This document shows, piece after piece, positions 41 through 29,888 of a stretch of DNA of 32,000 bases. The notes beneath the pieces are model-generated. The model searched no databases and had not been told where the DNA came from. It worked only from the letters and a program-made list of their open reading frames with translations. Made by a program: the position numbers and the translations under genes. Numbering within the stretch: the first letter of the stretch is position 1; each line of letters begins with the position of its first letter. Origin of the DNA: Candidatus Lokiarchaeum ossiferum (GTDB lineage: Archaea; Asgardarchaeota; Lokiarchaeia; Sigyniarchaeales; Promethearchaeaceae); the NCBI GenBank assembly GCA_025839675.1, contig CP104013.1, positions 2,880,001-2,912,000 of the forward strand, given 5' to 3'.

Positions 41-1384
41 ATGAGTGATGATAAGAATAAACCTACAACCGAAGAGGATGCACCAACTAAATCGCCTTTA
101 CTTTCAGCAGAGAAAGCAGAAGTTGCGAAAAAAGTCATTGTAAAGTCAATTCTTTGGATAACTATGCTCGGATTATTTGTAACCGTAATCGGAGGCATTT
201 GGGCAATTGGAGATATATTTTCTCAAGAGAAATTCTCAAATTTCACAGAATTAACAATTCAATCACAGTTATTTATAACTGGTTTAATATTGTTAGGTAT
301 TTTCTTCTTAGTTCTGTTTTTAGTTGTGCTGTATAAGCGTGGAAAGAAGAATTTAATGGAAAGTCTTTTCAAGGAAGCTCCAGAAAAAGAAGTGAAAACT
401 GCAGATGAGTATTTACCTGCAAAAATAATTACTGCAGGTGCTTTAATTTCATTTTTCACAATATTTGTTGGTTTAATAGTCGCATTTCTTATGTTTTTAA
501 TTGATGCAACAGTTTTTACTGACGAGTTAGGTTTTTGGAGTTTCATGAGAGAATTAACCGGAGGTTCCATAGTTTTGATAATTGGACTAATTGTTCTTCT
601 CTTAGATGGGTTAATATATGGTATGATTTATATTTGGCAAAATGGATATTATCTTCTAATCAACAAAATCCTACGTTATAACCAGAAAGTAGAAGAAATT
701 CATGATTTTTCAAAGAATGAACGGATTACAGGCAAAATTGTTTTTGGAATATTGGTTTTGATTCTTGTTGGAATCGTATTTGGTATTGTGTGGACTATAA
801 TTGAATCATTTTCAAGCGATTGGGGAACGACATTCCGTGAAGATTATATCTTTGGGGTTCAATTATCAATAATTGGATTTTTTGGAACTCTATCATTTGG
901 AACCATGATATCAGCTATGTTTATCTATAAATGGGGGAACAATGTGATTATGAAAGCACTTTTTATCCAATATACCCCTAAAGCTACTACTGAAGATAAC
1001 CTTCCAGCTAAAATTCTCGCAGTTGGGATATTAATCGCCATCGTTTTACTTGCTTCATCTCTGATCATTTGGATAATCACTTTGATCATCGATGCCTTAA
1101 GTTCTGGAAGCGGAGAAAATATTTTTGCAGCACTGGCTGCTTTGAGTGGAGGGTTGGCTTTACTTGCATATTCACTCATTACCGAAATATTTGTGATTTT
1201 AATACTGCTTTTTATTTTCTTCCTCCATAATGGTTACGCTTTCACTCTTCTAAAAATAATGAAAACAGAATCAATTATTGATTCTGGATTAGAAGAAAGC
1301 AAAATTCGAGCTCAAGAAAAGAAACAACAGCGTTTGAAGAAACGGGAAGAGAAGAAAACAGAAAAAAAGCCCTCTAAAAAGTAA
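41..1384 (+). CDS. Multi-pass membrane protein with two-fold internal duplication and Lys-rich C-terminal tail (function unknown)
   Basis: 447-aa ORF with about 8 hydrophobic helices. aa 35-212 and 230-409 are visibly homologous (YKRGKKNLMESLF..EYLPAKIITAGALI..LIDA..LTGGS..QNGYYLL versus YKWGNNVIMKALF..DNLPAKILAVGILI..IIDA..LSGGL..HNGYAFTLL). C-terminal tail is KKQQRLKKREEKKTEKKPSKK. A/T box lies upstream and a hairpin plus T-run follows the stop. No family recognised. Confidence 0.6.
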   Translation: MSDDKNKPTTEEDAPTKSPLLSAEKAEVAKKVIVKSILWITMLGLFVTVIGGIWAIGDIFSQEKFSNFTELTIQSQLFITGLILLGIFFLVLFLVVLYKRGKKNLMESLFKEAPEKEVKTADEYLPAKIITAGALISFFTIFVGLIVAFLMFLIDATVFTDELGFWSFMRELTGGSIVLIIGLIVLLLDGLIYGMIYIWQNGYYLLINKILRYNQKVEEIHDFSKNERITGKIVFGILVLILVGIVFGIVWTIIESFSSDWGTTFREDYIFGVQLSIIGFFGTLSFGTMISAMFIYKWGNNVIMKALFIQYTPKATTEDNLPAKILAVGILIAIVLLASSLIIWIITLIIDALSSGSGENIFAALAALSGGLALLAYSLITEIFVILILLFIFFLHNGYAFTLLKIMKTESIIDSGLEESKIRAQEKKQQRLKKREEKKTEKKPSKK

Positions 1385-6207: not shown

Positions 6208-7023
6208 TTGATAACTTTGAAGAGTGATACTTCCGGGATAGTATTCGATATCAAGAAATTTGCTATCCATGATGGCCCAGGAATAAGAACAACAGTATTT
6301 TTCAAAGGATGTCCTTTAAAATGTGAATGGTGCCACAATCCCGAAAGTCAGAAACATGAAATAGAACATATCTTAAAAAATCCTATTGACTCTCTTCATA
6401 ACGATAATTCTTACGAGCAGATTGGAAAAAAGATTAGATCTCTTGATTTAATTGATGAAATTAAGAAAGACGTATTATTTTACGATGAATCGGATGGAGG
6501 AGTTACCTTTTCAGGGGGGGATCCTCTATCTCAACATGAATTTCTGAAATCTTGTCTTCAATTGTGCAAAGAAAATGAAATTCACACAGCTCTTGACACC
6601 GCAGGTTATCTTTCTTGGTCAAAACTCAAAGAAATTATTCCATTAGTTGATTTGGTTTTATACGATCTCAAATTTGTTGATGAACCGAAGCATAAAAAAT
6701 ATACTGGTGTATCAAACAAATTGATACTCGAAAATTTGTCCAACCTTTCGGCCATGAACAAGGCAGTTTGGATAAGAATTCCAATAATTCCCACTCTTAA
6801 TGATACAGAAGATGAAATTCACCAAATGATAAACTTTATCTCACGATTAAATAATATCGGGAGCATTGATCTCTTGCCCTTTCATAAAATAGGTAAAAAT
6901 AAATATCAACGTCTAAACCTTCCATATAAAATGGAAAATTTTTTTGAACCATCACTTGATAGAATGGAAGAATTAAAAAGAAAATTTGAGACCCTAAATA
7001 TTCCTGTTAAAATTGGAGGTTAA
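6208..7023 (+). CDS. Glycyl-radical enzyme activating enzyme (radical SAM)
   Basis: HDGPGIRTTVFFKGCPLKCEWCHNPE (CX3CX2C), GGVTFSGGDPL and DLLPFHKIGKNKY. TTG start. The stop is 6 nt before the GRE start. Confidence 0.85.
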   Translation: MITLKSDTSGIVFDIKKFAIHDGPGIRTTVFFKGCPLKCEWCHNPESQKHEIEHILKNPIDSLHNDNSYEQIGKKIRSLDLIDEIKKDVLFYDESDGGVTFSGGDPLSQHEFLKSCLQLCKENEIHTALDTAGYLSWSKLKEIIPLVDLVLYDLKFVDEPKHKKYTGVSNKLILENLSNLSAMNKAVWIRIPIIPTLNDTEDEIHQMINFISRLNNIGSIDLLPFHKIGKNKYQRLNLPYKMENFFEPSLDRMEELKRKFETLNIPVKIGG

Positions 7024-7029
7024 AATTAT

Positions 7030-9393
7030 ATGAATCAACGAATTCAAGCATTGAGAACTCAAAGTCGTACCGCTATCCCAACATTATCTCTTGAACGAGC
7101 AAAATTGATGACAGAATTTTATAAATCTGGAGCAGGACACAAATTAAGCCCTCCTATGGCAAGAGCAGAATCTTTTAAATATCTTATGCAAAATAAGACA
7201 ATTTGTATTAATCCAGGGGAATTAATAGTAGGAGAACGAGGGCCCAGCCCAAAAGCAACATCGACTTATCCTGAAATTTGTTGCCATACTCTTCAAGATT
7301 TGGAAATTTTAAATAATCGGGAGAAAATATCTTTCAAGGTGACAGATGAAGATAAGAAATTAACTACATCGACCGTACTCCCCTTTTGGAAAAATCGATC
7401 AATTCGTGATAAAATTTTTGCACAGGTGGATCCTGAATGGATTGAAGCTTATGATGCAGGAGTTTTTACAGAATTTATGGAACAGAGGGCTCCAGGCCAT
7501 ACAGTCGCAGGGAAACAATTATTTACCAAAGGATTTTTGGATTTCAAAGAGGATATCAAGGAGAGTATAGCAAATTTAGATTTCTTTAATGATGCCGAAG
7601 CCTTTGCAAAGCGAGAACAATTACAAGCAATGAATATTGCTGCAGATGCAATTATAATTTATGCCAAACGCCATTCAGATCTAGCTCGATCATTAGCTAA
7701 CACAGAAGTAAATCCCACTCGAAAATCTGAACTTTTAAAAATTGCCGCAACTTGTGATTATGTTCCAGCTCATGCACCAAGGACCATGTGGGAAGCCTTA
7801 CAACATTATTGGTTTGTTCATTTAGGTGTTATAACTGAATTAAGTACTTGGGATTCATTCAATCCAGGAAGATTAGATCAACACCTCATTCCATTTTATC
7901 GGATGGAAATCTCAAAGGGTACCCTTACAAAAGAGTTTGCAAAGGAATTACTCCAAGCTTTCTGGGTGAAGTTTAATAACCAACCAGCACCCCCAAAGGT
8001 GGGAGTTACCGCTGAAGAATCTAACACATATACAGATTTTTGCAACATTAATGTGGGGGGACTTAAGGAGGATGGTTCAGATGGAGTAAATGAACTCTCT
8101 TATATGATTTTAGATGTAATTGAAGAGATGCGTTTGCTCCAACCGAGCTCAAATGTGCAGATTAGTAAAAAGACACCAAATCGTTTTCTCAATCGAACTT
8201 TAGAAATCTTGAAAACGGGATTTGGACAACCTTCGATATTTAATACGGATGCAATAATCCAAGAATTAACACGGCAAGGAAAAGACATAATCGATGCTAG
8301 AAATGGTGGAGCAAGTGGATGTGTTGAAATTGGTGCTTTTGGTAAGGAGGCTTATATTCTAACAGGATATTTCAACCTTGTTAAAATTTTAGAAATAACA
8401 TTGCATAATGGGACTGATCCACGTACGGGAAAACAAATTGGAATTCAAACCGGAAATCCTCAAGATTTTTCTACATTTGACATATTTATGAAAGCTTTTG
8501 AGAAGCAGGTGAAACATTTTGTGGATATAAAAATCAAAGGCAATATGGTGATTGAACAATTATGGGCTCAAAATCTTCCAGCAGTCTTTATGTCTATATT
8601 CGTTGATGATTGTATAAAAACCGGAAAGGATTATAATGCGGGTGGTGCCCATTACAATACATCCTATATTCAAATTGTTGGTATGGGGTCCATAACAGAT
8701 TCACTTGCTTCAATCAAACATCATATTTTTGATAAGCAGACACTTTCAATAGAAGAAATGATTAGTATTTTGGATTCTAATTTTGTACAGAATGAAAAAT
8801 TGCAGCAAGATTTTCTTCTAAATACTCCAAAATATGGGCAAGATGATGAATATGCAGATGATATTCTTCATGATGTTTTTGAAATCGTATATAATTCCAT
8901 AAATGGGAGACCGAATTCAAAAGGGGGTGTTCATCGTATTAATTTGCTCCCCACAACTGTTCATGTTTATTTTGGCTCAGTTATAGGAGCGACTCCAGAT
9001 GGGAGATTCGCAAGCAGGCCACTTTCAGAAGGAATTTCTCCCGTGCAGGGAACTGATATCAAAGGACCAACAGCTGTCTTAAAGTCTGCAGGTAAAATTG
9101 ATCATCTTAGAACAGGTGGAACCTTACTGAATCAAAAATTCACGCCAAGCCTAATGAAAGATGAAAGTGGCATCAAAAAAGTTGCACATTTAGTACGAAG
9201 CTACTTCAAAATGGATGGGCATCACATTCAATTCAATGTGGTTTCTGCTGAAACTCTTCGCGCTGCTCAAAAAAATCCTCAAGATTTTCGAAATTTAATA
9301 GTTCGAGTCGCTGGTTACAGCGATTACTTCGTTAATCTTGGTTCAGATTTACAAGAAGAAATAATTAAACGAACAGAACATAAAGAATTCTAA
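7030..9393 (+). CDS. Glycyl-radical enzyme, PFL2/glycerol-dehydratase/CutC/HypD-like (substrate unknown)
   Basis: 787 aa. C-terminal glycyl-radical motif LIVRVAGYSDYFVNL..IIKRTEH. Single-Cys loop GGASGCVEIG (Cys-x-Glu) rather than the Cys-Cys of true pyruvate formate-lyase. GGAGG at 7015-7019. Confidence 0.85.
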   Translation: MNQRIQALRTQSRTAIPTLSLERAKLMTEFYKSGAGHKLSPPMARAESFKYLMQNKTICINPGELIVGERGPSPKATSTYPEICCHTLQDLEILNNREKISFKVTDEDKKLTTSTVLPFWKNRSIRDKIFAQVDPEWIEAYDAGVFTEFMEQRAPGHTVAGKQLFTKGFLDFKEDIKESIANLDFFNDAEAFAKREQLQAMNIAADAIIIYAKRHSDLARSLANTEVNPTRKSELLKIAATCDYVPAHAPRTMWEALQHYWFVHLGVITELSTWDSFNPGRLDQHLIPFYRMEISKGTLTKEFAKELLQAFWVKFNNQPAPPKVGVTAEESNTYTDFCNINVGGLKEDGSDGVNELSYMILDVIEEMRLLQPSSNVQISKKTPNRFLNRTLEILKTGFGQPSIFNTDAIIQELTRQGKDIIDARNGGASGCVEIGAFGKEAYILTGYFNLVKILEITLHNGTDPRTGKQIGIQTGNPQDFSTFDIFMKAFEKQVKHFVDIKIKGNMVIEQLWAQNLPAVFMSIFVDDCIKTGKDYNAGGAHYNTSYIQIVGMGSITDSLASIKHHIFDKQTLSIEEMISILDSNFVQNEKLQQDFLLNTPKYGQDDEYADDILHDVFEIVYNSINGRPNSKGGVHRINLLPTTVHVYFGSVIGATPDGRFASRPLSEGISPVQGTDIKGPTAVLKSAGKIDHLRTGGTLLNQKFTPSLMKDESGIKKVAHLVRSYFKMDGHHIQFNVVSAETLRAAQKNPQDFRNLIVRVAGYSDYFVNLGSDLQEEIIKRTEHKEF

Positions 9394-9482
9394 AATATAA
9401 TCAAGATCATCTTTTTCCCATTTCCCTCCCATTTAAAAAGTTACATTCAAAAACTTTCCGCTTTTAGTAATATTAACATTCC

Positions 9483-9512
9483 GAAAATATTCATTTTTTC
9501 GAATATTTTTTT
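9483..9512 (+). terminator. Hairpin ending in a T-run downstream of the GRE gene
   Basis: GAAAATATTC (9483-9492) pairs with GAATATTTTT (9501-9510): 9 Watson-Crick pairs plus one G-U, with an 8-nt loop, running into TTTTTTT. Confidence 0.35.
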
Positions 9513-9543
9513 AAAATAATATTAATTCTCTGAGGAATCAATT

Positions 9544-10677
9544 ATGGCAGAAAACAAATTAGATCTTGCATATTTAGAAAAATTATGTAATGCATTTGGC
9601 CCTTCCGGTCACGAACGTGAAGTTCAAAAAATGGTTTTAAACTACGGTAAGCCCCTAGCGGATGAAGTTTTATTTGATAAAACTGGATCAGTTATTTTCA
9701 AACGCGGAACTTCGGGTCCTAAAATCATGCTTGCTGGACATGCTGATGAAATTGGCTATCTTGTTCAAAGTATTGAAAAAAATGGATTTCTAAAAATCTC
9801 CAATCTGGGAGGTATTTTTCCAGGAAACTTGATTGGTCATGAAATTCTTATCCGACCATTCAAAGGGGGGGAAAAAATCATTGGAATCACCACCAATGGT
9901 TCTTTAGCTGGGCCACATAAAGACAAAATTCCTAAATTGAGTGATCTTTTTGTTGATATTGGATGCGCTACTGATGAAGAAGTGAAGGAATTGGGAATTC
10001 GAGTTGGAGATCCTGCCGTTCCTTACGCAGTATATCGATCTTTAACCCGAAAACGAAAGGAAAAGAAAAAAGATGCCAAACCTGATGAAGAACCAGAGAT
10101 AAAGGAAGCACGTTTGGCAGTAGCAAAAGCATTTGACGATCGGATAGGTGTGTTTATGGCACTTGAAGTAATGCGACGATTGTCTGATGATCACATTTCC
10201 CATCCCAATATTGTTTATGCCGCATCCACAACCCAAGAAGAAGTGGGATGTAGAGGAGCTCGAACAGCTGCACAATTAATTCAACCAGATATTGGATTTT
10301 CACTTGATGTAACTATTTGCGGAGGAGGACCAGGAGCAAAGTCTATTGAACAAAAAATGGGGAAAGGCGTTGCTGTAGGAGTTTATGATAGTTCTATGAT
10401 TGCAAATCCAGTTTTCCGAAGGTTTGTTATGGAACTTGCAGAAGAAAAGGGTATTCCTTGTCAAACAGGATTTTTAAATAGAGGGGGAACTGATGCAGGA
10501 CAGATACATCTTTCTGGAATTGGAGCACCATCGTTATTTTTCGGTATTCCAACCCGTTATGTGCATTCCCATCATGCAATGTTAGATTTAGATGATGTTG
10601 AAGGCGCCATTCAACTATTAATCGAGTTAATTAAAAAATTGGATGAAAAAACTGTTGCTAGTTTTACCACTTTATAA
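9544..10677 (+). CDS. M42 family (TET/FrvX-like) aminopeptidase
   Basis: GPSGHEREV, MLAGHADEIGY, AKAFDDRIG, HPNIVYAASTTQEEVGCRGARTAA, GGTDAG and IPTRYVHSHHAM match M42 metallopeptidases. Carries an extra charged insert at aa 168-188. GAGG lies upstream of the ATG. Confidence 0.85.
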   Translation: MAENKLDLAYLEKLCNAFGPSGHEREVQKMVLNYGKPLADEVLFDKTGSVIFKRGTSGPKIMLAGHADEIGYLVQSIEKNGFLKISNLGGIFPGNLIGHEILIRPFKGGEKIIGITTNGSLAGPHKDKIPKLSDLFVDIGCATDEEVKELGIRVGDPAVPYAVYRSLTRKRKEKKKDAKPDEEPEIKEARLAVAKAFDDRIGVFMALEVMRRLSDDHISHPNIVYAASTTQEEVGCRGARTAAQLIQPDIGFSLDVTICGGGPGAKSIEQKMGKGVAVGVYDSSMIANPVFRRFVMELAEEKGIPCQTGFLNRGGTDAGQIHLSGIGAPSLFFGIPTRYVHSHHAMLDLDDVEGAIQLLIELIKKLDEKTVASFTTL

Positions 10678-10714: not shown

Positions 10715-12349
10715 TCAAAATTCATTTTGATCTGTCGATATTTGAGACAAAATTTTAATCAATTTCAAATTAGGGGTCGAAAGTAGATACTTATACAACC
10801 GATTTTGAGGATAAATCATACAATATTTGGAATTTTTTAAATCACGTAAAAAATTCAAAATGAATCGGGTTGAGAAAAACTTAGCGGAATGAAGGTCAAA
10901 AATCATGTTCCTTACGAAAGATTTTGTCAAAGTATCTGAAAAACAGACTATTGAAGAAATAAAACCATATTTTTTACTTAACAAGTTTTTGATTTGAGGT
11001 AAGTAAGATTGTTCTTCAGAAGAATGAGAAGTATCCAAGCTTTCAAGAGTTAGAGAATTCGAATCGATTTTGGTTACTTCTTCTAAAACACCTTGTGAAA
11101 ATCTCAATAAAACCAATGAAAACTCTGAAAGATCAAATCTCGAGGAAAATTTGGCTAAGTTTTGTACATTATTCCCTAAAATAAGGAGGATTTTCCCCTC
11201 AGAACCTATTTGGTGAATCATTGCATTATTTAGTAATGATGGAATTGCCCAAAAGGCAATTTTTCTTGGATTAATAGTCAAATTTCGAGCATACTTTGAA
11301 TATCGGAAAAGTTCTCGCAAAATTTTAGGTTTGGGATAGCAATTCCAATCTGTCCCATAATTTTTGTAACAGGATAACATTTTCTCTCCTAACAAATTCC
11401 ATCGATCTTTGGTAGAAGGAAAGGGCGTTTGAAAGAGATCTTCTAAATATTGGACAATAGATTTGACTTGAAACATGAAATTAAAAGAAGTATGGTAGGA
11501 TTTCTTTAAATATTTCATAATTTTTGCATCCCTTTCAACAAAATCTTCACAAGATAATATTGTTTCTGGAATTTTACATGGAGTTATTATGAAGCGACTA
11601 TACCGCTTAATTAATTTCAAAGCAAAATAATAGTCTGATCCTTTGAAAGTAAGAGAAAATGATTCATTCGGTGCCAAAGTTTCAATATACCGATAGAATG
11701 ACTCATATTTAAAATTTCCAAAAAATTGATGACTTGAGGTTAAGAAATCTAGTCCCACAGATTTTGGAAAATATAAAAATTGATTTTGGCTTTGTGCATC
11801 AATTAGTCGATCTATAAAATAACCCATCAAAGCAAAAATACTGCACGCTGGAGAAGATGTTTCATTATTTCCGGATTTTTCAACAAATTTTTCCAAAAGA
11901 GTTTCAGAGATAACATGAATATTTCCGAGATCGCTCCCAAATTTTTTTTTTATAAAAGGTGTTAATTTTTCAAAGGTTGTTTCAAGATGATAAATTGCAT
12001 CTTCTTCCAAGGATAACTCCTTAACATCCAAAGTTACCATTTCTTTAACCATATTAAATTGGTTGACTGTATGAAGATATGCGCGTAAAATGACACCATT
12101 TGTATCCACAACAAATTCTATCGATACTGGGTTCTGGTTCAAAAAGAGAGCATAGAAATCAGCCCATAATTTATGAAATAAGATCGAATTCGTCTCTAAT
12201 TCAAGAAATGGCAGTTTTATCACAATGTTGGATAGAATTTGAACCTTGGAATATTCTTGTGCAGTTGATAAATGCTTATGCCAAGTAACAAAGTACTCAT
12301 GTATTTTTTTTTGAAGATTTTTTGATTTTATCGAATCTATTTTACTCAT
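10715..12349 (-). CDS. Hypothetical protein, 544 aa, no recognisable domain
   Basis: Long uninterrupted ORF. Its ATG overlaps the stop of the upstream 644-aa gene (ATGAGTAA, 8-nt overlap). No Walker, metal-binding or catalytic motif recognised by eye, and no TM helices. Confidence 0.6.
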   Translation of the reverse strand: MSKIDSIKSKNLQKKIHEYFVTWHKHLSTAQEYSKVQILSNIVIKLPFLELETNSILFHKLWADFYALFLNQNPVSIEFVVDTNGVILRAYLHTVNQFNMVKEMVTLDVKELSLEEDAIYHLETTFEKLTPFIKKKFGSDLGNIHVISETLLEKFVEKSGNNETSSPACSIFALMGYFIDRLIDAQSQNQFLYFPKSVGLDFLTSSHQFFGNFKYESFYRYIETLAPNESFSLTFKGSDYYFALKLIKRYSRFIITPCKIPETILSCEDFVERDAKIMKYLKKSYHTSFNFMFQVKSIVQYLEDLFQTPFPSTKDRWNLLGEKMLSCYKNYGTDWNCYPKPKILRELFRYSKYARNLTINPRKIAFWAIPSLLNNAMIHQIGSEGKILLILGNNVQNLAKFSSRFDLSEFSLVLLRFSQGVLEEVTKIDSNSLTLESLDTSHSSEEQSYLPQIKNLLSKKYGFISSIVCFSDTLTKSFVRNMIFDLHSAKFFSTRFILNFLRDLKNSKYCMIYPQNRLYKYLLSTPNLKLIKILSQISTDQNEF

Positions 12350-14276
12350 TTGACTTTTCTCCTTCCGGTTTTTCTTCTTGAGTATCTTTAGAAACTGATT
12401 CTGGTAAAAGAACTGATTCGGATCTTAGGGATTTTTGTTTTGAGTAGTTTTTTTTTTCAATTTTCAGGTTATCAATTTGAGGTTGAAACTTAGGTTTCAG
12501 TTCTTCCAATGCATTCTTTCGATTCTGTTTGTACTTCTGAATTTGCTCTTTATATGTTTGTTTAGCAAGTTTAAGCTCAGATTTAATCTGAGGTAATATT
12601 GGACGATTTATCTCGGTGATTTTTGCCTTTAATTTAGATCTTTGTTGTTTTTGCTGAATCGTTCTTTCCTTTTTATCAAATTCTATAAAATTATAGACCG
12701 TTTTCATACTATCCAAAAATGTAGTAAGCGTCGGGATCATCTTGGAAGGGATGAAATTTGCGATTGTCAGCATATTCTGTAAACCTATTGGTTGATAATT
12801 AGAAAGTTCCACTACTTTAGAATTTAAAACAACATCAGGTGCTTTGTTTTGAATTCGTAACTTTTCGTGTTTATATGATAGATCGAGACGGATCCTTTCT
12901 AATTTGTAATGAAAACTTATAGTTGATTTTTCTAACTTCTTTTTCTTTTTCAATTTTAGGAGTTTTAGAGAAGGAGTCTGCTCTTTTTCTTCAATCATTG
13001 ATATTTGATGATCAATTTTGGACTGAAATAATTCATTTTTTCTTCTTAATTTTGCCTGTTTTCCAATAATTGCTCGTTCTAACTCATCCCCATCCAAAAT
13101 TCGAGTGACTCCAGTTTCAAAACCAAGAATTTCAAGAGGTTCTTTTAAAGAACTTTTAAGAATTGAGCGAAATGCATAATCTTGAGTCGATTGAATTGCA
13201 GAGTTCCCAAATACTACAATATATTCTTTACCCGTAAAATTCGGTTCTGGAGGATTTTCTCCTGCAAGTAAGATCCAATCTCCAACATTATAAAGATCTT
13301 TGAATAAAATTGTTTGAAATCGTAAGAGTAGGAGGTAGAGTGTGTGATGATCGGCAACACTCAGATTTCCAAGATGAAGGGAAAGTCCAGGAAGCTTAAA
13401 AAGGTTTAAATCTTTTGGAATAGGCTTGATATCGAGTTTTGCGATATTTTCAGGAGTTTTTACCACATTATTTCCTGAAGATGCGAATTTTTCTTCATTT
13501 ATTTGTTTTAAGAAGGGATTTTGCTTAGGATCAAACCCTAAATCAATTAATGTTTCCCAATCCAACGTTAAACAATCATTTCCAAAATAAACCCGATGTA
13601 AATGTGTTGTTTTAATTCTCTTTCCTATACATGGCCCATTCTGTTCTATAATGGAAAATCCATCGTTAATAAAAAGTAAGGGTTTTTCTTTAGATAAACT
13701 TTGAGAGGGGCGATCAATCCATTCTTGATAAGTCTCAGGGGATTTACTTGTATTTGAATTGCTAAAAACCGAGAATAGAGGAAGAGATGCCCAAAATCCG
13801 AATAAAGGATCTTGCTTAAGCTGGGATAAAAGAACAATTGAATCAATTTGTGAAAAGAGAGAAAGATTTGGTTCGTTTATTACCTCACTTGGCTCAAGGG
13901 TTGGATCTGTCTCACCATCAAGATTTTGGGAAATTTTTTGATCGAAAACATCTGATCTATCAACCAAAATTGCATTATGGTGGTTTATCCAAGTTTTTAA
14001 CCCATAATTTGAGAGAAGAGCATCAGAACTATAGCCATTGAAAACAACAGGAAGCACATAGATTTCAGATATTCCTCGAGATTTTAAGAAATTTATTAGA
14101 ACAACTAGAGAATCGGGATTGAAGGATACAGGAAAAGGTTGTGGAATCAACATATCAACTACAATTAAAACCTTACCCTTACTTGGAATAAAACCTCCTT
14201 TTTGCTCTAAAAGTCTCAATCCATCAATTATGGTTTTTTCGAGTGAATTATTTTCTGAGATAATTGTGATGCCCAT
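12342..14276 (-). CDS. DUF362-like domain protein with long Lys-rich coiled-coil C-terminal half
   Basis: aa 1-257 follow the DUF362 layout (KGKVLIVVDM.., DSLVVLINFLKSRGISEIYVL, ..AILVD, QIDSIVLLSQLK, KPLLFINDGFSIIEQNGPCIG, YFGNDCLTLDWETLIDLGFDP). aa 398-475 and 533-615 are heptad-like and K/E/Q-rich (LKLLKLKKKKKLEK, KLKAKITEI, KQTYKEQIQKYKQNRKNALEELK). The domain call is from memory of the family pattern, not a search. Confidence 0.6.
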   Translation of the reverse strand: MGITIISENNSLEKTIIDGLRLLEQKGGFIPSKGKVLIVVDMLIPQPFPVSFNPDSLVVLINFLKSRGISEIYVLPVVFNGYSSDALLSNYGLKTWINHHNAILVDRSDVFDQKISQNLDGETDPTLEPSEVINEPNLSLFSQIDSIVLLSQLKQDPLFGFWASLPLFSVFSNSNTSKSPETYQEWIDRPSQSLSKEKPLLFINDGFSIIEQNGPCIGKRIKTTHLHRVYFGNDCLTLDWETLIDLGFDPKQNPFLKQINEEKFASSGNNVVKTPENIAKLDIKPIPKDLNLFKLPGLSLHLGNLSVADHHTLYLLLLRFQTILFKDLYNVGDWILLAGENPPEPNFTGKEYIVVFGNSAIQSTQDYAFRSILKSSLKEPLEILGFETGVTRILDGDELERAIIGKQAKLRRKNELFQSKIDHQISMIEEKEQTPSLKLLKLKKKKKLEKSTISFHYKLERIRLDLSYKHEKLRIQNKAPDVVLNSKVVELSNYQPIGLQNMLTIANFIPSKMIPTLTTFLDSMKTVYNFIEFDKKERTIQQKQQRSKLKAKITEINRPILPQIKSELKLAKQTYKEQIQKYKQNRKNALEELKPKFQPQIDNLKIEKKNYSKQKSLRSESVLLPESVSKDTQEEKPEGEKSNE

Positions 14277-14359
14277 TTTTTAATCCTTTAAATCGTTCTT
14301 ATTTATTCAAATGTCGTTTCCAAATAAGAATTTTTCACAAAAACTAATTAGAAAAAAAT

Positions 14360-15661
14360 TTACTTTTGATCATATCGAGTTTTAACTAATCCCGCTTGCG
14401 CTTGATATTCGCCATAAGCTTTACCTGCTTTTGCCAATTTTCCAATAATATGTGAAATTCTAGGATCAATAATTCCTGGATTTTCATTTTCAAAAGGTGT
14501 CCCAGGGAGAGGCATAAAAGTATGGGTATGAATGCGGACATTTTTCACCTTGTTAGTCAGAACTTGATTAAAAAATGAAATATTCGCTTGAATATCTTCC
14601 TCAATCTCACCAGGTAACCCAAAAATGAAATCAATTTCTGCACCTATCCCAAATTCATCCATAAGATCGACAGCGGTGATGACATCTTCGATGTTATGTC
14701 CCCTTGCTATTGATTTCAAGAGACGATTGGAAGCAGTTTGAGCCCCAATCAATAATTTTCGATTTGTCATTAAAGGTGTGACAATTTCCAGCATTTCCCG
14801 AGTTACAGATTCAGGCCTAACTTCACTTGGAAAAGTACCAAAATATATGCCTTTAATAGAATTTTTTTGCGAAATTCCAGTTAGTAATTCTTGTACCGCT
14901 TCTATGTTTGGTGTAATTCCATTTGGAGAACCGTATGCAAATGCGTTGGGTGTTAAAAACCATACTTTATCAAATTTTATTTCGGACGCTCTTTTAACAT
15001 TTTGAAGAATGGTTTGAATGGGAACATGTCGCATTTTATTTGAGGAACACCCTGTTTGACAAAATTTGCATCGATAAGGACATCCTCGAGAAATTTCAAT
15101 GGGTCCAAAGAGACGGAATTTCTCTGAAAATGAGGGAGTGACCCCTAATTCAATAATTTTTGCAGGTAATCCAGGTGAATATTGAGGTTTCAGTTGGATC
15201 ACCCCATTTAGCATAGGATAGTTAAGGAGATCTTGTGAAGCATTATATAAAGTATGTAATAATTGAGAAAATCCAATTTCACCTTCCCCTGGAATAAGGA
15301 AATCAACATTAAGGTTTTGAAATTCTTGAGGTGATGCCGTTACATGAGGACCTCCTGCCACCGTAAAGATTTTTGGATGAAATTGGTTGAAAAAATATGG
15401 AGTGGATTTACTAAACTCTTTAAATTGATTCATTTGAATTGACAACAACGAAAAAGCTAGAACTACAAAATCATAGTTTTGAAATGGAATTTCCTTAATT
15501 TTTGAAGAATGTTGAGGAGATTTATAAAGTTGAAACGGTAAAGCAATAAAATCGTAGTTTTCCATCAGCTGGGAATTATTTTCTAAATATCCCATCAAAA
15601 TGCTCCATGAATACCGGTTTGGTTTGTCATACCCAAATAATACCAATCCTTTCTTGATCAC
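14360..15661 (-). CDS. B12-binding-domain/radical SAM protein (MJ_1487-like)
   Basis: N-terminal Rossmann-like B12-binding-type region (VLFGYD.., DFVVLAFSL, GGPHVTASP, VDFLIPGEGE) followed by ISRGCPYRCKFCQTG (CX3CX2C) and FGLPGE. GTG start with a TTTATTTAA box 20-28 nt upstream. Confidence 0.8.
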   Translation of the reverse strand: MIKKGLVLFGYDKPNRYSWSILMGYLENNSQLMENYDFIALPFQLYKSPQHSSKIKEIPFQNYDFVVLAFSLLSIQMNQFKEFSKSTPYFFNQFHPKIFTVAGGPHVTASPQEFQNLNVDFLIPGEGEIGFSQLLHTLYNASQDLLNYPMLNGVIQLKPQYSPGLPAKIIELGVTPSFSEKFRLFGPIEISRGCPYRCKFCQTGCSSNKMRHVPIQTILQNVKRASEIKFDKVWFLTPNAFAYGSPNGITPNIEAVQELLTGISQKNSIKGIYFGTFPSEVRPESVTREMLEIVTPLMTNRKLLIGAQTASNRLLKSIARGHNIEDVITAVDLMDEFGIGAEIDFIFGLPGEIEEDIQANISFFNQVLTNKVKNVRIHTHTFMPLPGTPFENENPGIIDPRISHIIGKLAKAGKAYGEYQAQAGLVKTRYDQK

Positions 15662-15690: not shown

Positions 15691-15796
15691 AATTTTTGAA
15701 GAGACTGTTGGAGAAAAAAACTAAAACTGGAATGCTTCTTAATAAGTTTCTAATAAGGATTCCTTAAAAGTATGCAACGGTTTTACATCATGATTA

Positions 15797-18661
15797 TTGA
15801 AAAAAGAGATGGCTAACCTGAATCTTTCGGAAGAATTAACAAACTCAGCAAAAATTCTTGAACAAAGAATTGGCATGCAAGCAATTATTTCAAAGATCTC
15901 TTCTCTATTTATAAGCTGTCCCTTTGATCTTGTTGATGAAAACATCGAAAAATCATTAGAAATTATAGGTAAGTTTACAAAAGTTGATACATGCCATGTG
16001 ATTATTCCAAATGAGGATAACAACCACAGCCTAGTTTTTGAATGGCACGATAAATCAGTAGAATCAACCAAACAAGTATTTGAACATGCAATTTTATCGG
16101 AAAAAATCTTTCAGAATAACCTACTGATAAATCCACTTTTTGTAGCACAAACGAGCAAATTTAATTTTCCTTCTCCCAAGTTGAAGCAAATTTTTACGAA
16201 TTTAGGAATACTGTCTTTCCTTATTGTCCCTATGAAATATCTCGGTAAAAATTTTGGGTTTATTACATTATCCAATTCTACCCATAAAAGAACTTTAGAT
16301 CCAAAAAATCAAGCATTGGTTAACTCAATTGCAGAGATATTTGTTTCAAAAATAATAACAAAAAAATTAGAAGAAGAGAAGCAAGAACAAGAACTTAAAT
16401 ACCAAAATCTATTCAACAATATGGTTAATGGGTTCTCCTATCACAATGTAGTCTTTGATGCCAATGACGAACCCATAGATTTTATTTATGTGGATGTCAA
16501 TCCTGCATTTACAATTTTAACGGGTAGATCTCGTGAAGAAGTGATTGGTAAGAAATTATCGGAAATCAGTCCAAATTATTTGAAAGTACTGAAAAAACAT
16601 TATTATAAAGTTATAGTCGATAAATTTAATCTTACTTACGAGTATTATTCAAGTTCTATTGACAAATGGTTTTTGGTTAATTCTTACTCACCGGAAGATG
16701 GATATTTTGTTAATATATTTAATGATATTACAGAACGTAAAATAGCAGAACAAAAGCTTCAACAAAACGAAGAATGGTTTCAAGATGTTCTCAAGAATGC
16801 CTTGGATGCATCGTACAGAATCAATTACATTACTCACAAAGTGGAGTATATTTCCCCAGTTTTTACCAAAATGACAGGAATATCAACAGAAAGTTTTAAT
16901 TATCAAGATTTTAAAGCGCGAATTCATCCAACAGATTTTGAACACCAAGAAACTTACTTTTATGAAGAAATTAGAAGAAATCCAAGTTCGAAAATTCCAT
17001 TGAAGATGAAATATAGGTTTAAATGCTATGGAGATAATTATCTTTGGTTGGAAGACAATTTTACTTTAATTGTGGATGAAAAAAGGCAGCCTTGCTATTC
17101 AATTGGTACACTTAGAGACATTCATCAACAAACTGAAGCAGAAAGAAGGTTAAAACGGAGTGAACTAAGATTTCGGGAGGTTTTGGAACACTCATCAGAT
17201 GTAATTTATCGAATTGCATTTAAAACAAGAAAATTTGATTTTATTTCACCCTCAATTGAAGTTAATTTAGGATATACAGTAAATGAAATATTAAATCTCA
17301 ATTTTAATGATTCTCTTGCATTAATTCACCCAGAAGATCGACAATTAGTAAATAACAAGATGAAACAATTATTAAATGAGAAGAAACACGAAAATACCAT
17401 TAATATTCAATATAGGCTTAAAAACAAACAAAATAGCTATATTTGGGTCAATGAAAATCGGACGTCTATACGCAATAAAAAAAATAAGATTATATTTATT
17501 TTAGGAGTATTTAGAGATGTCACAGATCAATTAGAATTAGAAAAAGAACGATTACGAGCAGATAAAATTGAATCAATTGGACTCTTGGCAGCCGGAATCG
17601 CCCACGATTTTAATAATCTACTCGTTTCAATATTAGGGAACGTAAATTTATTACAAATGACTCAAATAGATGAGGAACAATCAGATATATTACACGATAT
17701 TGAACAGGGCACTTTTAACGCAACTAATTTAACAAAACAACTATTAACATTTGCAAAAGGCGGAGCCCCTATAAAGAAAAGTGAAAATTTGAAAGATATT
17801 GTTGAAAATGCCACAAAATTTGTTTTAAGGGGATCAAAATGCCGAGCAACTTTCAATTTTGAATCAAATCTTCCCCAAACCGCTATTGATGCAGGACAAA
17901 TGAATCAAGTTCTTATGAATTTACTTATCAATGCCGATCATGCAATGAGTGAGGGAGGAGTGATTCAGATTACAGTCAAATCAACATTGTTAGAAGAATC
18001 ATCAAGTATACCTCTAAAAAAGGGAAAATATCTTCTGATTGAGATTAAAGATCAAGGAAAGGGAATCAAGCCAATACACAAAGATAGCATATTTAAACCA
18101 TACTTCACAACAAAATCTAAAGGATCGGGGCTGGGATTGGCGACTTGTTATTCCATCATCAAACAGCATAATGGCTACATTAATTTTCGCTCCAATCTTC
18201 AAGAGGGAACAACATTCTTTTTCTACCTCCCGATTTCAGAGTCAGAAACGATTAAAGCTAATGAAGAACAACAAATATCGAGTAAAATCAATAAATCTAT
18301 TTTAGTTTTAGATGATGATGCCAACATTCACAAGCTTCTGCAACGTTTATTCAAGAAACTCTCAATTAAACTCGATTCTATTTATGATGGAAAAGAGATA
18401 TTAGAAATTTATAAGAAAAAAGACTCAATGGGAGAAAAATATGATTTAGTGATCATGGATTTAACTATTCCGGGAGGGATTGGAGGACAAGAAGCAATTT
18501 CCCGGCTTAAATCATATGATCGGAATGTTAAAGCAATTGTTTCCAGCGGATATTCAAATGATCCCATCATGTCAAATTATGAAAAATATGGTTTTATTGA
18601 TGTTCTTCCGAAACCTTTCACGATTCAGGAATTAAAAACCATCATCGAAAAACATTGTTAA
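15797..18661 (+). CDS. Hybrid sensor histidine kinase/response regulator with multiple PAS domains
   Basis: N-terminal GAF-like region, then three PAS-like modules. H-box AAGIAHDFNNLL (His codon 17602-17604). HATPase N/G boxes (MNLLINADHAM, DQGKGI, GSGLGLA). C-terminal receiver ILVLDDD..DLVIMDLTIPGG..LPKPF (Asp codon 18458-18460). The start may be ATG 15809 rather than TTG 15797. Confidence 0.85.
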   Translation: MKKEMANLNLSEELTNSAKILEQRIGMQAIISKISSLFISCPFDLVDENIEKSLEIIGKFTKVDTCHVIIPNEDNNHSLVFEWHDKSVESTKQVFEHAILSEKIFQNNLLINPLFVAQTSKFNFPSPKLKQIFTNLGILSFLIVPMKYLGKNFGFITLSNSTHKRTLDPKNQALVNSIAEIFVSKIITKKLEEEKQEQELKYQNLFNNMVNGFSYHNVVFDANDEPIDFIYVDVNPAFTILTGRSREEVIGKKLSEISPNYLKVLKKHYYKVIVDKFNLTYEYYSSSIDKWFLVNSYSPEDGYFVNIFNDITERKIAEQKLQQNEEWFQDVLKNALDASYRINYITHKVEYISPVFTKMTGISTESFNYQDFKARIHPTDFEHQETYFYEEIRRNPSSKIPLKMKYRFKCYGDNYLWLEDNFTLIVDEKRQPCYSIGTLRDIHQQTEAERRLKRSELRFREVLEHSSDVIYRIAFKTRKFDFISPSIEVNLGYTVNEILNLNFNDSLALIHPEDRQLVNNKMKQLLNEKKHENTINIQYRLKNKQNSYIWVNENRTSIRNKKNKIIFILGVFRDVTDQLELEKERLRADKIESIGLLAAGIAHDFNNLLVSILGNVNLLQMTQIDEEQSDILHDIEQGTFNATNLTKQLLTFAKGGAPIKKSENLKDIVENATKFVLRGSKCRATFNFESNLPQTAIDAGQMNQVLMNLLINADHAMSEGGVIQITVKSTLLEESSSIPLKKGKYLLIEIKDQGKGIKPIHKDSIFKPYFTTKSKGSGLGLATCYSIIKQHNGYINFRSNLQEGTTFFFYLPISESETIKANEEQQISSKINKSILVLDDDANIHKLLQRLFKKLSIKLDSIYDGKEILEIYKKKDSMGEKYDLVIMDLTIPGGIGGQEAISRLKSYDRNVKAIVSSGYSNDPIMSNYEKYGFIDVLPKPFTIQELKTIIEKHC

Positions 18662-26306: not shown

Positions 26307-29300
26307 ATGGCATTACCAGATATATTAATTCAACTAACATACGTAATTATTGGAGTAATTGTATTTTTCATGGGATTTCTCTTAGTATATAAGAATTTGA
26401 AGAAAATCAATACAGTTGAGGGTGAAAAATTTAACGGTTCTGATTGGTTAGCCATGATTGGATTTGGATTGCTATTTGGCTTAGCAATGATTTTCATTGT
26501 GAATATCACTTTCGAGCTAATATTACCAGTAGAAATTCCAAGTATCGCTGGATATGTCTTAATGATAATGTTAGGGGTACTTGTAATATATCCTCTGTGG
26601 GAAGTAATTTTCTTAGGGCGACCCACAAGCGATTCAGTACATGATTTTCATAAGTTCTTGGAATCGAAAATATTAGATCGGTTTAAAGGAAAGGTGGCAT
26701 ATTTGGTATCTTTACTTATTTTCATAATCATCTATCTAGTTCCAATTATTATTATCAACCTAATTTCGAACGAACCTTGGCAGCAAATTGCATTTATTTG
26801 GTTCTTACTTTTTCCACTCTTCTTCTTAGCTTATTTTGCAGCTAATGGAACGGTTTCAGGAATTATAGCTAAAACTTATACAAATACAATCCCAGCCCGT
26901 GTATTGACCAAAGGAAAACTAGGAAATAAAAAAGTGATAGGTATAATAATGGTCGCTATAACTTGGATTCCTTTTATGCTAAATATCTATAATTTTGGAA
27001 ATCCTATTTTGAAGGCAATTAGAGGCGTTGGAGAGATACCAACAGAATCTTCTACTAGTAGTCAGTTGGATAAATATAATGCATATATATCCCTATTTAC
27101 TACAACAGTTTTTGGTATCAAAGGATTTTTCTCTAAATTCTGGAATAAGAAATCGAAAACAAAAACAATAGATTTTCTCTTTTCTGGATATTTAATGATT
27201 GGAATTGGAGTGAATATGTTATTAAGTTTCGTGCAAATTGACCCTTCCGTCGTTGCTTCCATTTTTGATTCAATTCCAATCCCATTTATTGCGTCTTTAG
27301 GAAATGTCTTCTATAATTACACACTCTTATTACCAATAATTATAATTTCAAGCGGTATAACATTCGTTTATGGAATAATCAATCTTGTCCAAGTTAACTC
27401 AGATTTTCATTCGGATATTCGTCTTCAATCAACTACCAAAGCTTTTGGAAAAATAGATCTGGATAAAATGGTCGAAAGTCGTAACGAAATGCTAGAAGAT
27501 CTGGAAAAAGGAAAACAAGATAAAAAGAAGAAGGAAAAGAAGAAAAAATATGACTATGCAACCTTGTACAAATCACTTTTATTAGCTCCGAGTTATTCAA
27601 AATATGGAGTAGATCTTAACGAACAAGTTCGACAAAAGGCGGCTCAATATTTATTCCTAATGTCGGTAGATGACAGAGAAATCGCACAGAAAATAATTGA
27701 ATTCATTTTTGCAGTAACGATTGAGAAAGATACAATCGAGAAGGATACAACAGAAATTCAAGAACAATATTACTTGAGCAAAGAAGCATTTGATGCTTTA
27801 GGAGAAATTGGGGAAATTTATCCAGATTTGGTTATGGAACGCCTAATTAACGCATTAGAAATTGTTGATAATTATACTCAAAGATATATTTTGGATGCAC
27901 TGGGTGATATCGGAGAAACGAAGGAGAACATGAAAGTAATTTTGTCCAAAATTCTCCCATTGTTTAGCAGTAAGCGCTATGATGTGCGACTCGCGGCATT
28001 CCAAGCTATGTCAGAAATGATCTTGGAAGGAGATTCTTCGGATAAAGAATTTGTCAAGCTTGCCTTAGATGCAGTGTATACTGTCTTAAAAGATGATACT
28101 AATGAAGGGGCGATTGATACTTGTTTAGAAGCTTTAGTAAAAATGAGTGCTCGGATTGCAGATGATATAGATATTGAAAAAATTATACCCTTTTTAACCT
28201 ATTCCAAAGGGAAAGACCAAGATACCACAGATTTCATAATTCAGAATGCGATTGTTATCCTCAGTTATATGGTATATTATAATATGGCCCAGTTTACAGC
28301 AATTTTGGATAATTTAAAACCATTTTTAAAGGATCAAAGAGATTTTATCCGATATGCTGCAGTAGATGCTTTGGGGAACTATATATTAAAATGTCCAGAA
28401 GATAAAATTGATGAAATTTTAGTGGAGCTATTGATTTTATCTACGAATGATGCTAATGATGATGTGGCTCATATAGCGACCGAAAGTATAGCGGAATTTT
28501 TGATCATGCATAAAGGATATAAGATCACTATCGATAACCAAGCTATTTCGATTTTAGATTATTATATGAACGCATTGGTTTCAAGCAATGTTCAAGTTAC
28601 TGAAAATGCGAGTGAGGCTTTAAAACAAATATCGCCATTATATGATGAAGATATTTACCCACAACTCGAAAAGCATTTGAAAAGTCAAGAAAACTTGGAA
28701 CTAGTAAGGGATTGTTTGCATGTGATTGCTGTCTCCGGAGTAGAAGAACATTTAAGCACCGATTTAGAATTGATCTACAGCTTGACAGAGCATGAGGATC
28801 CAAGTGTGCGAAGTGAAGCAATTCTGACATTAGGATTTTTGGGAAAGAATAGACCTGAAATTAAACCCGAAGTAATTGTGAAATGTCTGGACGATAAAGA
28901 TCCTCAAGTTCGTAGAGAATCGATCTTTGCTTTAGGAAAAATTGGCAAGCAAAACCCAACGGCTGTGGTCCCTGTATTAATTCAAAAATTCTTCGAATTG
29001 GATCGCCACGATGAAGATAAGGTTAGTGAAGTAGAACTATATGCTGAAACCCTTGGGGAAATTGGAAAAGTGCACCCATCAAATGAAATCATAATCACAT
29101 TGCAAAATGTGCTAATGGGTGATACTAATCCTTTCTCGAAGGATGTGATTGCAAGAGCCTTAGGAACCATTGGATATGGGATGATTCAATCCGGAAAAGC
29201 TATAAAACGGATTGAAAATGATGCATTCTACAATCAAATCTCATGGTTACGATCCGCTGATAAGGCAGAATATACAATTGGTAATCTTATCATTATTTTC

Positions 29301-29888
29301 TTAGAAGCATTACAATTGAAAGGCATTCCAGATTCAGTAATGAATGAAATTTCCGATTCGATTCAAGATTTGCTCCCAGTATTTCTTTTTGCACAAAAAG
29401 ATGAGAAGAAACCAAAGAATGAAGATGTTATTTTAGAAACTATTAAATCTTTGCTTGCTCAAGCGTATTATGCAAATTATAACAATGAAATCTTGGAAAC
29501 CATCGATCGAGTAGATTCTTTACTGAGTTTCAAACGGTTTTTCAAAACAGATGATGAGATCCTCCAAAAGCAATTCATATTCTACGCCACGCAATATACT
29601 GCGGATGGGAAGCAATTCCATGATCAGGGTGAAGTCTTTTTACTTTTGAAAGATCAAGATCCTGAATATCTGAAATATGCGCTAAAATCTTTTGAAATCT
29701 CTCAGCAATTATCGCCTTATGAGTTTTATACCCCCAATGCAGTGCTTCAAATGGGAATAATCCATAAGACCTTAAACAATAGAGAATTGGCAAAGCAGAA
29801 ATTTGAGGAAGCACTTGAAATCTTCACTTCATTGGATGAAGTGGATAAAATGCGCGAATGCGATGCAAATTTGAAAGAATTAAGTTAA
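26307..29888 (+). CDS. Large membrane-anchored HEAT-repeat protein with C-terminal TPR-like region
   Basis: 1193 aa. aa 1-370 contain about 9-10 hydrophobic helices, followed by a poly-Lys linker (KGKQDKKKKEKKKK). Then at least 7 PBS-lyase-type HEAT signatures (DALGEIGE, DALGDIGE, DALGNY, TLGFLGK, FALGKIGK, ETLGEIGK, RALGTIGY) with DP.VR elements (DPSVRSEA, DPQVRRES). The C-terminus is TPR-like (NAVLQMGIIHKTLNNRELAKQKFEEALEIF). Confidence 0.75.
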   Translation: MALPDILIQLTYVIIGVIVFFMGFLLVYKNLKKINTVEGEKFNGSDWLAMIGFGLLFGLAMIFIVNITFELILPVEIPSIAGYVLMIMLGVLVIYPLWEVIFLGRPTSDSVHDFHKFLESKILDRFKGKVAYLVSLLIFIIIYLVPIIIINLISNEPWQQIAFIWFLLFPLFFLAYFAANGTVSGIIAKTYTNTIPARVLTKGKLGNKKVIGIIMVAITWIPFMLNIYNFGNPILKAIRGVGEIPTESSTSSQLDKYNAYISLFTTTVFGIKGFFSKFWNKKSKTKTIDFLFSGYLMIGIGVNMLLSFVQIDPSVVASIFDSIPIPFIASLGNVFYNYTLLLPIIIISSGITFVYGIINLVQVNSDFHSDIRLQSTTKAFGKIDLDKMVESRNEMLEDLEKGKQDKKKKEKKKKYDYATLYKSLLLAPSYSKYGVDLNEQVRQKAAQYLFLMSVDDREIAQKIIEFIFAVTIEKDTIEKDTTEIQEQYYLSKEAFDALGEIGEIYPDLVMERLINALEIVDNYTQRYILDALGDIGETKENMKVILSKILPLFSSKRYDVRLAAFQAMSEMILEGDSSDKEFVKLALDAVYTVLKDDTNEGAIDTCLEALVKMSARIADDIDIEKIIPFLTYSKGKDQDTTDFIIQNAIVILSYMVYYNMAQFTAILDNLKPFLKDQRDFIRYAAVDALGNYILKCPEDKIDEILVELLILSTNDANDDVAHIATESIAEFLIMHKGYKITIDNQAISILDYYMNALVSSNVQVTENASEALKQISPLYDEDIYPQLEKHLKSQENLELVRDCLHVIAVSGVEEHLSTDLELIYSLTEHEDPSVRSEAILTLGFLGKNRPEIKPEVIVKCLDDKDPQVRRESIFALGKIGKQNPTAVVPVLIQKFFELDRHDEDKVSEVELYAETLGEIGKVHPSNEIIITLQNVLMGDTNPFSKDVIARALGTIGYGMIQSGKAIKRIENDAFYNQISWLRSADKAEYTIGNLIIIFLEALQLKGIPDSVMNEISDSIQDLLPVFLFAQKDEKKPKNEDVILETIKSLLAQAYYANYNNEILETIDRVDSLLSFKRFFKTDDEILQKQFIFYATQYTADGKQFHDQGEVFLLLKDQDPEYLKYALKSFEISQQLSPYEFYTPNAVLQMGIIHKTLNNRELAKQKFEEALEIFTSLDEVDKMRECDANLKELS
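27721..27750 (+). repeat. In-frame 15-bp tandem duplication (2 copies) inside the HEAT-protein gene
   Basis: ATTGAGAAAGATACA / ATCGAGAAGGATACA, 13/15 identical. Both differences are synonymous third positions. Encodes IEKDT-IEKDT. Confidence 0.8.

Follow-up and report, generated by a model that had tools for sequence, protein, structure and literature searches.

A Lokiarchaeal gene trio encoding an MJ_1487-type radical-SAM enzyme and a coupled pair of a diverged DUF362 protein and a 544-residue partner

A stretch of 32,000 nucleotides from Candidatus Lokiarchaeum ossiferum (GenBank assembly GCA_025839675.1, contig CP104013.1, positions 2,880,001 to 2,912,000 of the forward strand; referred to as the window) carries three consecutive minus-strand genes, which encode a 433-aa radical S-adenosylmethionine (radical-SAM) enzyme, a 644-aa protein, and a 544-aa protein. 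The described family nearest to the enzyme is MJ_1487 (TIGR04013), with which it shares the CxxxCxxC radical-SAM core and probably the N-terminal B12-like domain. No function has been demonstrated for this family, and no link to a DUF362/partner pair has been described. The sole published statement on MJ1487 that we found is a tentative BzaE-like assignment to benzimidazole synthesis in MjCyc, which was derived from 29% identity. The same architecture is present in the closest named paralogue family, TIGR04014 (MJ_0865), whose substrate is a large protein (MCR). This suggests one way in which the trio could work, although there is no MCR gene in the window or in the fetched loci. The full profile of DUF362 (PF04015), a family itself without known function, is matched by the N-terminal domain of the 644-aa family. 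The window 644-aa protein differs from DUF362 in its sub-threshold score, the absence of the K-x-N motif, its two helical insertions, and the constant presence of a dedicated downstream partner. Shorter members of the 644-aa family (short forms) share with NuoB and the [NiFe]-hydrogenase small subunit a pattern of four cysteines, all of which are missing from the window protein. The matches to these proteins, including Oxidored_q6, cover just ~43 to 60 residues, and no hydrogenase large-subunit or complex I genes lie nearby. Radical-SAM systems acting on the C-terminus of a protein or peptide include mycofactocin MftC/MftA and PQQ PqqE/PqqA. The trio resembles these, by analogy only, in that a radical-SAM gene stands beside a product having an invariant acidic-aromatic C-terminus. 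The window enzyme departs from MftC and PqqE in carrying a B12-like domain and in lacking a SPASM domain, and its putative substrate would be ~540 aa in length instead of a short peptide. No RRE- or PqqD-like protein was found, though no test aimed at the mycofactocin/PQQ-type analogy was made.

In the databases and literature that we searched, there is no description of the 544-aa family or of the association of the three genes. The radical-SAM protein is a further member of a known, uncharacterized family, and the 644-aa protein is a DUF362 variant that has diverged strongly. Our overall reading, to which we give an even chance, is that the trio constitutes a module conserved in Lokiarchaeia, in which the 644-aa and 544-aa proteins form a hetero-complex working with the radical-SAM enzyme. 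The components of the locus are as follows.

14360–15661, minus strand: radical-SAM gene (433 aa, GTG start)
14277–14359, minus strand: 83-nt spacer between the radical-SAM gene and the 644-aa gene, read directly from the sequence
12342–14276, minus strand: 644-aa gene, NEF87_002438, a long form of the diverged DUF362 family
12342–12349, minus strand: ATGAGTAA, the 8-nt overlap (aATGAGTAAa), in which the 544-aa start codon and the 644-aa stop codon overlap
10715–12349, minus strand: 544-aa partner gene, NEF87_002437

The initial annotation of these three open reading frames (ORFs) was exact in its coordinates, including the ATGAGTAA overlap of the last two genes at 12342–12349 and the gap at 14277–14359, in which both the T-runs and the AATAAATA box are present. 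The 644-aa and 544-aa proteins correspond with full identity to NEF87_002438 and NEF87_002437 of this species, both annotated as hypothetical. Only 2–3 relatives per protein were given by a word-indexed homology search. A HMMER search of 1.84 billion cluster representatives was performed with a query concatenated from the globular parts of the window 644-aa and 544-aa proteins only, and it yielded 146 relatives. Together with the proteins already in hand, these bring the 644-aa family to 66 members and the 544-aa family to 84. In 16 of 16 context loci, the 544-type gene was immediately preceded on its own strand by the 644-type gene, and the same order was observed in all 73 metagenome loci with any upstream sequence. 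Approximately 95 pair loci were examined in all, in which the ORFs were intact and their lengths conserved. Orthologues of all three proteins, with their lengths kept, occur on many other contigs, indicating that the trio ORFs are real genes and not chance ORFs. An ATGAnTAA/TAG overlap was detected in six of seven close loci, although the proteins are just ~30% identical, and the other junctions consist of 4-nt ATGA/GTGA overlaps or, as in the subgroup without an adjacent radical-SAM gene described below, of gaps that are mostly 1–7 nt and up to ~24 nt long. The translational coupling proposed in the initial annotation is borne out, at the level of sequence, by these conserved overlaps and tight junctions. 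A mirror-tree analysis that controlled for two neighboring genes gave a partial r of 0.52 for the pair versus 0.13–0.30 for the controls, which lends modest support to co-evolution of the pair. We conclude that the association of the 644-aa and 544-aa genes is fixed and that the pair is translationally coupled. All taxon labels on the family members were Lokiarchaeota, Promethearchaeia, or the undifferentiated phylum name. In L022–L031 and other loci of subgroup 2, the conserved M-I-N start of the 544-like gene lies 1–7 nt past the upstream stop, and translation would begin with ATG, TTG, or, as it appears, CTG (e.g., TAA AGAA CTG ATT AAC). This suggests that the subgroup-2 junctions may operate by termination-reinitiation with a non-canonical start.

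The 433-aa enzyme scored 361.9 bits against TIGR04013 (B12_SAM_MJ_1487; NCBIfam cutoff, 251) and matched profile positions 1–382 of 382, in agreement with the MJ_1487-type assignment made initially. It is a member of this family, for which cobalamin binding and catalysis are predicted. The CPYRCKFC cluster motif starts at residue 194, the CxxxCxxC pattern is kept in orthologues, and the Pfam Radical_SAM domain was detected with an E-value of 5.8e-20. The B12-binding domain PF02310 scored 29.9 bits, just below the cutoff of 32.1 bits, and unmarked PF02310 matches were obtained for the orthologues in L007 and L092–L095. The next-best family was TIGR04014, named MCR glutamine C-methyltransferase by NCBIfam, for which the 73.8 bits obtained are so far below the cutoff of 360 that the enzyme is regarded as a paralogue and not as a member. 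A match to the PADLOC candidate-system model PDC-M51A (E 1.7e-15) was also observed for this protein (14360–15661) and was judged to be generic radical-SAM similarity.

In the window and in 12 other loci (L001, L002, L004–L007, L009, L010, and L092–L095), the gene immediately ahead of the pair and in the same orientation encodes a radical-SAM orthologue, 40–84% identical over its full length. These loci span at least seven subgroups of the 544-aa family that are below ~30% identity, and they comprise the syntenic loci of Lokiarchaeum, Promethearchaeum, and Harpocratesius, four very divergent subgroups, and one further locus, with flanks unrelated to those of the window. The genes surrounding the linked loci are unrelated to one another, being ParE/DUF1152 and ACAD/ETF in one case, Fer4/Metallophos and FG-GAP/S8 in another, and Cpn60 with a methyltransferase or the proteasome with Rv0495c in others. 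The spacer between the radical-SAM gene and the 644-type gene is 35 nt long and conserved in L002, L005, and L006, and 49–97 nt long elsewhere. The 83-nt spacer of the window contains a T7 run immediately 3′ of the radical-SAM stop codon, the AATAAATA box, and an AGGA located 13 nt ahead of the 644-aa ATG. The idea that the three genes belong together held for the pair, whose members always co-occur, and for the radical-SAM gene in most subgroups, but not for one large subgroup, in whose sampled flanks the radical-SAM gene is absent. The 544-like proteins of this stand-alone subgroup end in IDKHEF, their 644-like partners are short, and the pair lies among opposite-strand genes, flanked by two genes, one divergent and pantothenate-kinase-like, the other convergent and encoding aspartate-semialdehyde dehydrogenase. 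At position +2 downstream of the stand-alone pair, 49 subgroup-2 loci (e.g., L052:10779-12140) also encode a conserved ~450-aa coiled-coil protein, for which weak TPR and MIT matches were obtained.

The following features were located in the 644-aa protein and, for the last line, in the 544-aa protein.

13557–14171, minus strand: DUF362-like alpha/beta domain, residues 36–240 (PF04015, E 0.0073)
13161–13391, minus strand: remnant of the cysteine domain, residues 296–372, with S306 and D309 (CxxC) and S359 (GxCA)
12849–13088, minus strand: long helical (coiled-coil) insertion 1, residues 397–476, between the third and fourth former ligand positions
12717–12830, minus strand: conserved segment, residues 483–520, equivalent to ILE(I/L)PGCPP...IPxL, with Y494 at the cysteine position
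12414–12674, minus strand: long helical (coiled-coil) C-terminal extension, residues 535–621, absent from the short forms
10718–10735, minus strand: C-terminal motif T-D-Q-N-E-F-COOH of the 544-aa protein, family consensus h-h-[T/I]-D-x-[H/N]-E-[F/Y]

The whole 644-aa protein gave no Pfam or NCBIfam match at E ≤ 0.1. When residues 1–250 were examined separately, profile positions 1–196 of the 200 positions of PF04015 were matched with 16.8 bits (threshold, 24), and sub-threshold DUF362 matches were likewise obtained for four of six close relatives. The family consensus, by contrast with this single-protein score, matched PF04015 with 81.9 bits (E 8.5e-23). The short-form members exceed the threshold individually (35–60 bits) and are labeled DUF362 by IMG and NCBI, and the window protein matches its family relatives at E-values from 1e-10 to 1e-80. 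The protein is thus placed in the DUF362 family by transitive homology through its relatives and the family consensus, not by its own score, and in this sense the designation "DUF362-like" given to it initially holds. The K-x-N strand motif of the short forms (I-K-F-N) is replaced by V-V-D-M in the window protein. AlphaFold2 (AF2) gave a model with a pLDDT of 49.5 from a 3-sequence alignment. The best Foldseek match of this low-confidence model was 4NAR (E 0.013, probability 0.96), which is GntE2, a LarA-superfamily enzyme. DUF362 and DUF2088, the family of the LarA nickel-pincer racemases, are sister families of Pfam clan CL0471 (PMC11770544).

Two length classes were recognized in the 644-aa family, consisting of short forms of ~440–495 aa and long forms of ~575–710 aa. 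The short forms carry the cysteines CxxC ... G-D-C-A ... P-G-C-P-P, each of which is 93% conserved in 59 metagenome short forms (GxCA/GCPP pattern). This CxxC...GxCA...GCPP arrangement resembles the proximal-cluster site of NuoB and the [NiFe]-hydrogenase small subunit. The short-form consensus gave 18 bits against Pfam Oxidored_q6 (PF01058; E 0.0024, cutoff 27). When the short-form domain profile was compared with the PDB, 32 of 40 matches were [NiFe]-hydrogenase small subunits, the best of which (E 0.0041) covered ~43 residues at the GCPP segment. All four cysteines are absent from the window protein, where S306, D309, S359, and Y494 occupy their positions, and several further polar residues that the short forms conserve are missing as well. 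The short forms have 91 positions with at least 90% conservation, of which 41 are retained in the window protein and 21, the four cysteines included, are lost in essentially all long forms, while N485 and P515 are near-invariant across 41 family members. The former fourth-ligand segment is flanked in the window protein by long helices, at the places where the short forms have a ~45-residue lysine-rich linker and a short tail, and these helices are expansions of that linker and tail. AF2 predicted helices at residues 397–431 and 435–476 (block pLDDT mostly 80–89, falling to 60–64 at the ends) and at residues 535–557 and 560–621 (mostly 82–91, falling to 56–62 at the ends). The confidently predicted long helix amounts to ~170 residues in total, and the coiled coil noted in the initial annotation is borne out at residues 397–476 and 535–621. 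The 644-aa protein is probably a cluster-less, coiled-coil-expanded derivative of an ancestral protein that would have bound an Fe-S cluster, and this descent from a four-cysteine ancestor had been overlooked initially. A dependence of cysteine loss on radical-SAM adjacency was ruled out, as the radical-SAM-linked 644-type proteins of L093 and L094 carry all four cysteines. The short forms (e.g., L008:6509-7996, P0043, and P0054) often end with W-E-x-L-COOH. Together with the tail of the 544-type proteins, this end gives both subunits of the stand-alone pair conserved extreme C-termini.

The 544-aa protein, initially described as an orphan, is part of a family that comprises at least 84 clusters at the 50% identity level. 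No match was found for this family in Pfam, NCBIfam, PADLOC, PHROGs, or the PDB with single sequences, the consensus, or 7- and 55-sequence profiles. In the same five databases, the 644-aa and 544-aa proteins are both without homology to characterized families, as had been expected, and the two families are unrelated to each other (hhalign probability, 0.1%). The most conserved feature of the 544-aa family is its extreme C-terminus. Among 55 representatives that are otherwise ~20–30% identical, the tail residues D and E are conserved at 87% and 91%, respectively, and F at 96% with Y in the remaining sequences, and in 73 metagenome copies, D, H, E, and F reach 97%, 95%, 88%, and 97%. No conserved cysteines were found in the family alignments. 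The AlphaFold2 model of this protein, which was obtained from a 3-sequence alignment, had a pLDDT of 39.3 and was unusable. Two beta-beta-beta-alpha-beta-alpha units were seen in it at residues 75–158 and 385–488. Its Foldseek matches were to Ppx/GppA, the Hsp70 nucleotide-binding domain (NBD), NTPDase, and sugar kinases, all at E ≥ 0.026, and these non-significant matches were enriched in ASKHA and RNase-H-like folds. An ASKHA fold is unsupported, however, as hhalign gave probabilities of 0.2% (Fumble) and 1.9% (Hydantoinase_A) in a comparison that has little power because its positive control reached just 8.8%, and a conserved D-x-G loop is not evident in the family alignments. The F-BAR domain of Syp1, the best PDB profile match (E 0.025), was rejected as spurious since the region is predicted to be mixed alpha/beta.

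The pair would very probably form a complex, and a functional tie between the radical-SAM enzyme and the pair appears reasonably probable, while any specific chemistry for the trio is doubtful at best. In the mechanism that we propose, the two proteins would be made in fixed proportion and would form a stable hetero-complex, and the acidic-aromatic C-terminal tail of the 544-aa protein would probably dock into a pocket on either its partner or the radical-SAM enzyme. A [4Fe-4S] cluster may have been part of the ancestral complex, which would have cooperated with the radical-SAM enzyme in one of two roles, that of a dedicated partner in redox chemistry or cofactor handling or that of a protein substrate. 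Since L093 and L094 combine radical-SAM linkage with the four cysteines, the simplest history is that the ancestral trio had a cysteine-bearing DUF362 subunit. Cysteine loss and helical expansion would then have occurred in the window lineage and several others, independently of the event that unlinked the pair from the radical-SAM gene in the IDKHEF subgroup. The DUF362 subunit of L. ossiferum and its relatives would serve as a non-redox coiled-coil scaffold on which the 544-aa protein is held for the radical-SAM enzyme, a scaffold being the more likely role for a subunit that would no longer be a redox component.

The main rival to such a module is that the pair constitutes an independent two-subunit enzyme or complex, engaged for example in RNA, lipid, or cofactor modification, of which the radical-SAM gene is a mere syntenic neighbor. 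We consider it unlikely but of substantial weight, and several observations count both in its favor and against a trio acting together. No radical-SAM gene of the TIGR04013-type family was found in the sampled flanks of the IDKHEF subgroup (39 loci with >1.5 kb upstream and 52 with >1.5 kb downstream). The radical-SAM protein is conserved like the housekeeping neighbors while the pair diverges fast, to ~28–32% identity between genera whose radical-SAM proteins are ~60% identical, which is unusual for obligate catalytic subunits. In the window spacer, the T7 run could end transcription between the enzyme and the pair. By the NCBIfam description, TIGR04013 enzymes are widespread in methanogens and also occur in a few bacteria, organisms in which the pair is not known, and the enzyme therefore probably has a function of its own, with which the tentative benzimidazole role of MJ1487 in MjCyc would be consistent. 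Adjacency in Promethearchaeales lies largely inside a wider conserved synteny (aminotransferase ... glycine-cleavage genes), which makes those loci weaker as independent evidence. The module is further weakened by the Fe-S assignment, which draws on a motif and on sub-threshold or borderline matches, by the poor structure models of both proteins, and by the literature on MJ1487/TIGR04013, DUF362/COG2006/PF04015, and the NEF87 tags, in which neither functional data nor any mention of these genes was found. An independent pair is in turn difficult to reconcile with the preservation of adjacency, order, and strand across at least seven divergent subgroups that differ in their flanking genes, and with spacers between the radical-SAM gene and the pair of down to 35 nt.

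It is improbable, though conceivable, that the radical-SAM enzyme modifies the 544-aa or 644-aa protein, for example by methylating the D-x-H-E-F tail of the 544-aa protein or changing it in some other way, much as TIGR04014 methylates a glutamine of MCR. TIGR04014 is the nearest named family after TIGR04013, and the motif at the extreme C-terminus is exceptionally well conserved for a protein that otherwise evolves fast and persists with or without the cysteines of the DUF362 subunit. The subgroup that lacks an adjacent radical-SAM gene conserves the tail to the same degree, however, and the TIGR04014 score is far below its cutoff, as given above. That the genes are cargo of a mobile element, virus, or defense island, or decaying or spurious ORFs, is scarcely credible and is effectively refuted by their conservation. 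Such an origin could be suspected from the low conservation, the few relatives in the word-indexed search, and the ParE toxin gene beside one locus. Against it, the pair gave no meaningful PADLOC or PHROGs match and the enzyme only the generic one to PDC-M51A, the genes keep stable positions among housekeeping genes, the ORFs are intact and length-conserved in ~95 loci, and the GC content of the trio genes (0.31–0.34) is inside the range of the window (0.30–0.40).

For the module reading, the trio is taken to be a radical-SAM enzyme with dedicated partner proteins, and that it represents something without precedent seems doubtful. The most specific version is similarly tentative: a Lokiarchaeia-specific system in which the radical-SAM enzyme would act on or with a complex of a DUF362/Fe-S subunit and a new-fold protein, whose D-x-H-E-F tail would be recognized or modified, and in which the Fe-S subunit would have turned into a scaffold in the cultured species. 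Elucidating such a system would also provide a first functional handle on DUF362 and the MJ_1487 family. Both DUF362 and the MJ_1487 radical-SAM family are widespread unknowns, and their fixed association gives each component a testable partner. Relatives with and without the cysteines, and with and without the coiled-coil insertions, amount to a natural experiment. Experiments are feasible because the trio is present in Ca. L. ossiferum and related copies occur in metagenome-assembled genomes (MAGs) of Promethearchaeum, both genera having cultured representatives. No eukaryotic signature was found in the trio, which adds nothing yet on eukaryote-like features.

On one side, the trio is accompanied in the window by a PFL-like glycyl-radical enzyme and its activase, an M42 peptidase, and glycine-cleavage genes, and on the other side by a hybrid PAS/GAF histidine kinase, an ACT protein, a methyladenine glycosylase, and an aminotransferase. 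The plus-strand genes for the glycyl-radical-enzyme activase, the PFL-like glycyl radical enzyme, and the M42 peptidase (6208–10677) separate the 544-aa gene from gcvP2. Since the 544-like gene directly abuts gcvP2 in L002 and L004–L006, these genes are regarded as a lineage-specific insertion common to the window and L001; the M42 peptidase, alone of the three, is also present in the Harpocratesius locus. A 110-aa ORF (15739–16071, minus strand) lies antisense to the start of the histidine-kinase gene and is probably spurious. At the beginning of the window, a 447-aa protein without a Pfam match (41–1384, plus strand) shows 51% identity to its counterpart in the Promethearchaeum locus L006. 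A 1193-aa HEAT-repeat protein encoded at 26307–29888 (plus strand) has weak condensin Cnd1 and importin-like matches, and is possibly a eukaryote-like repeat protein of Asgard archaea.

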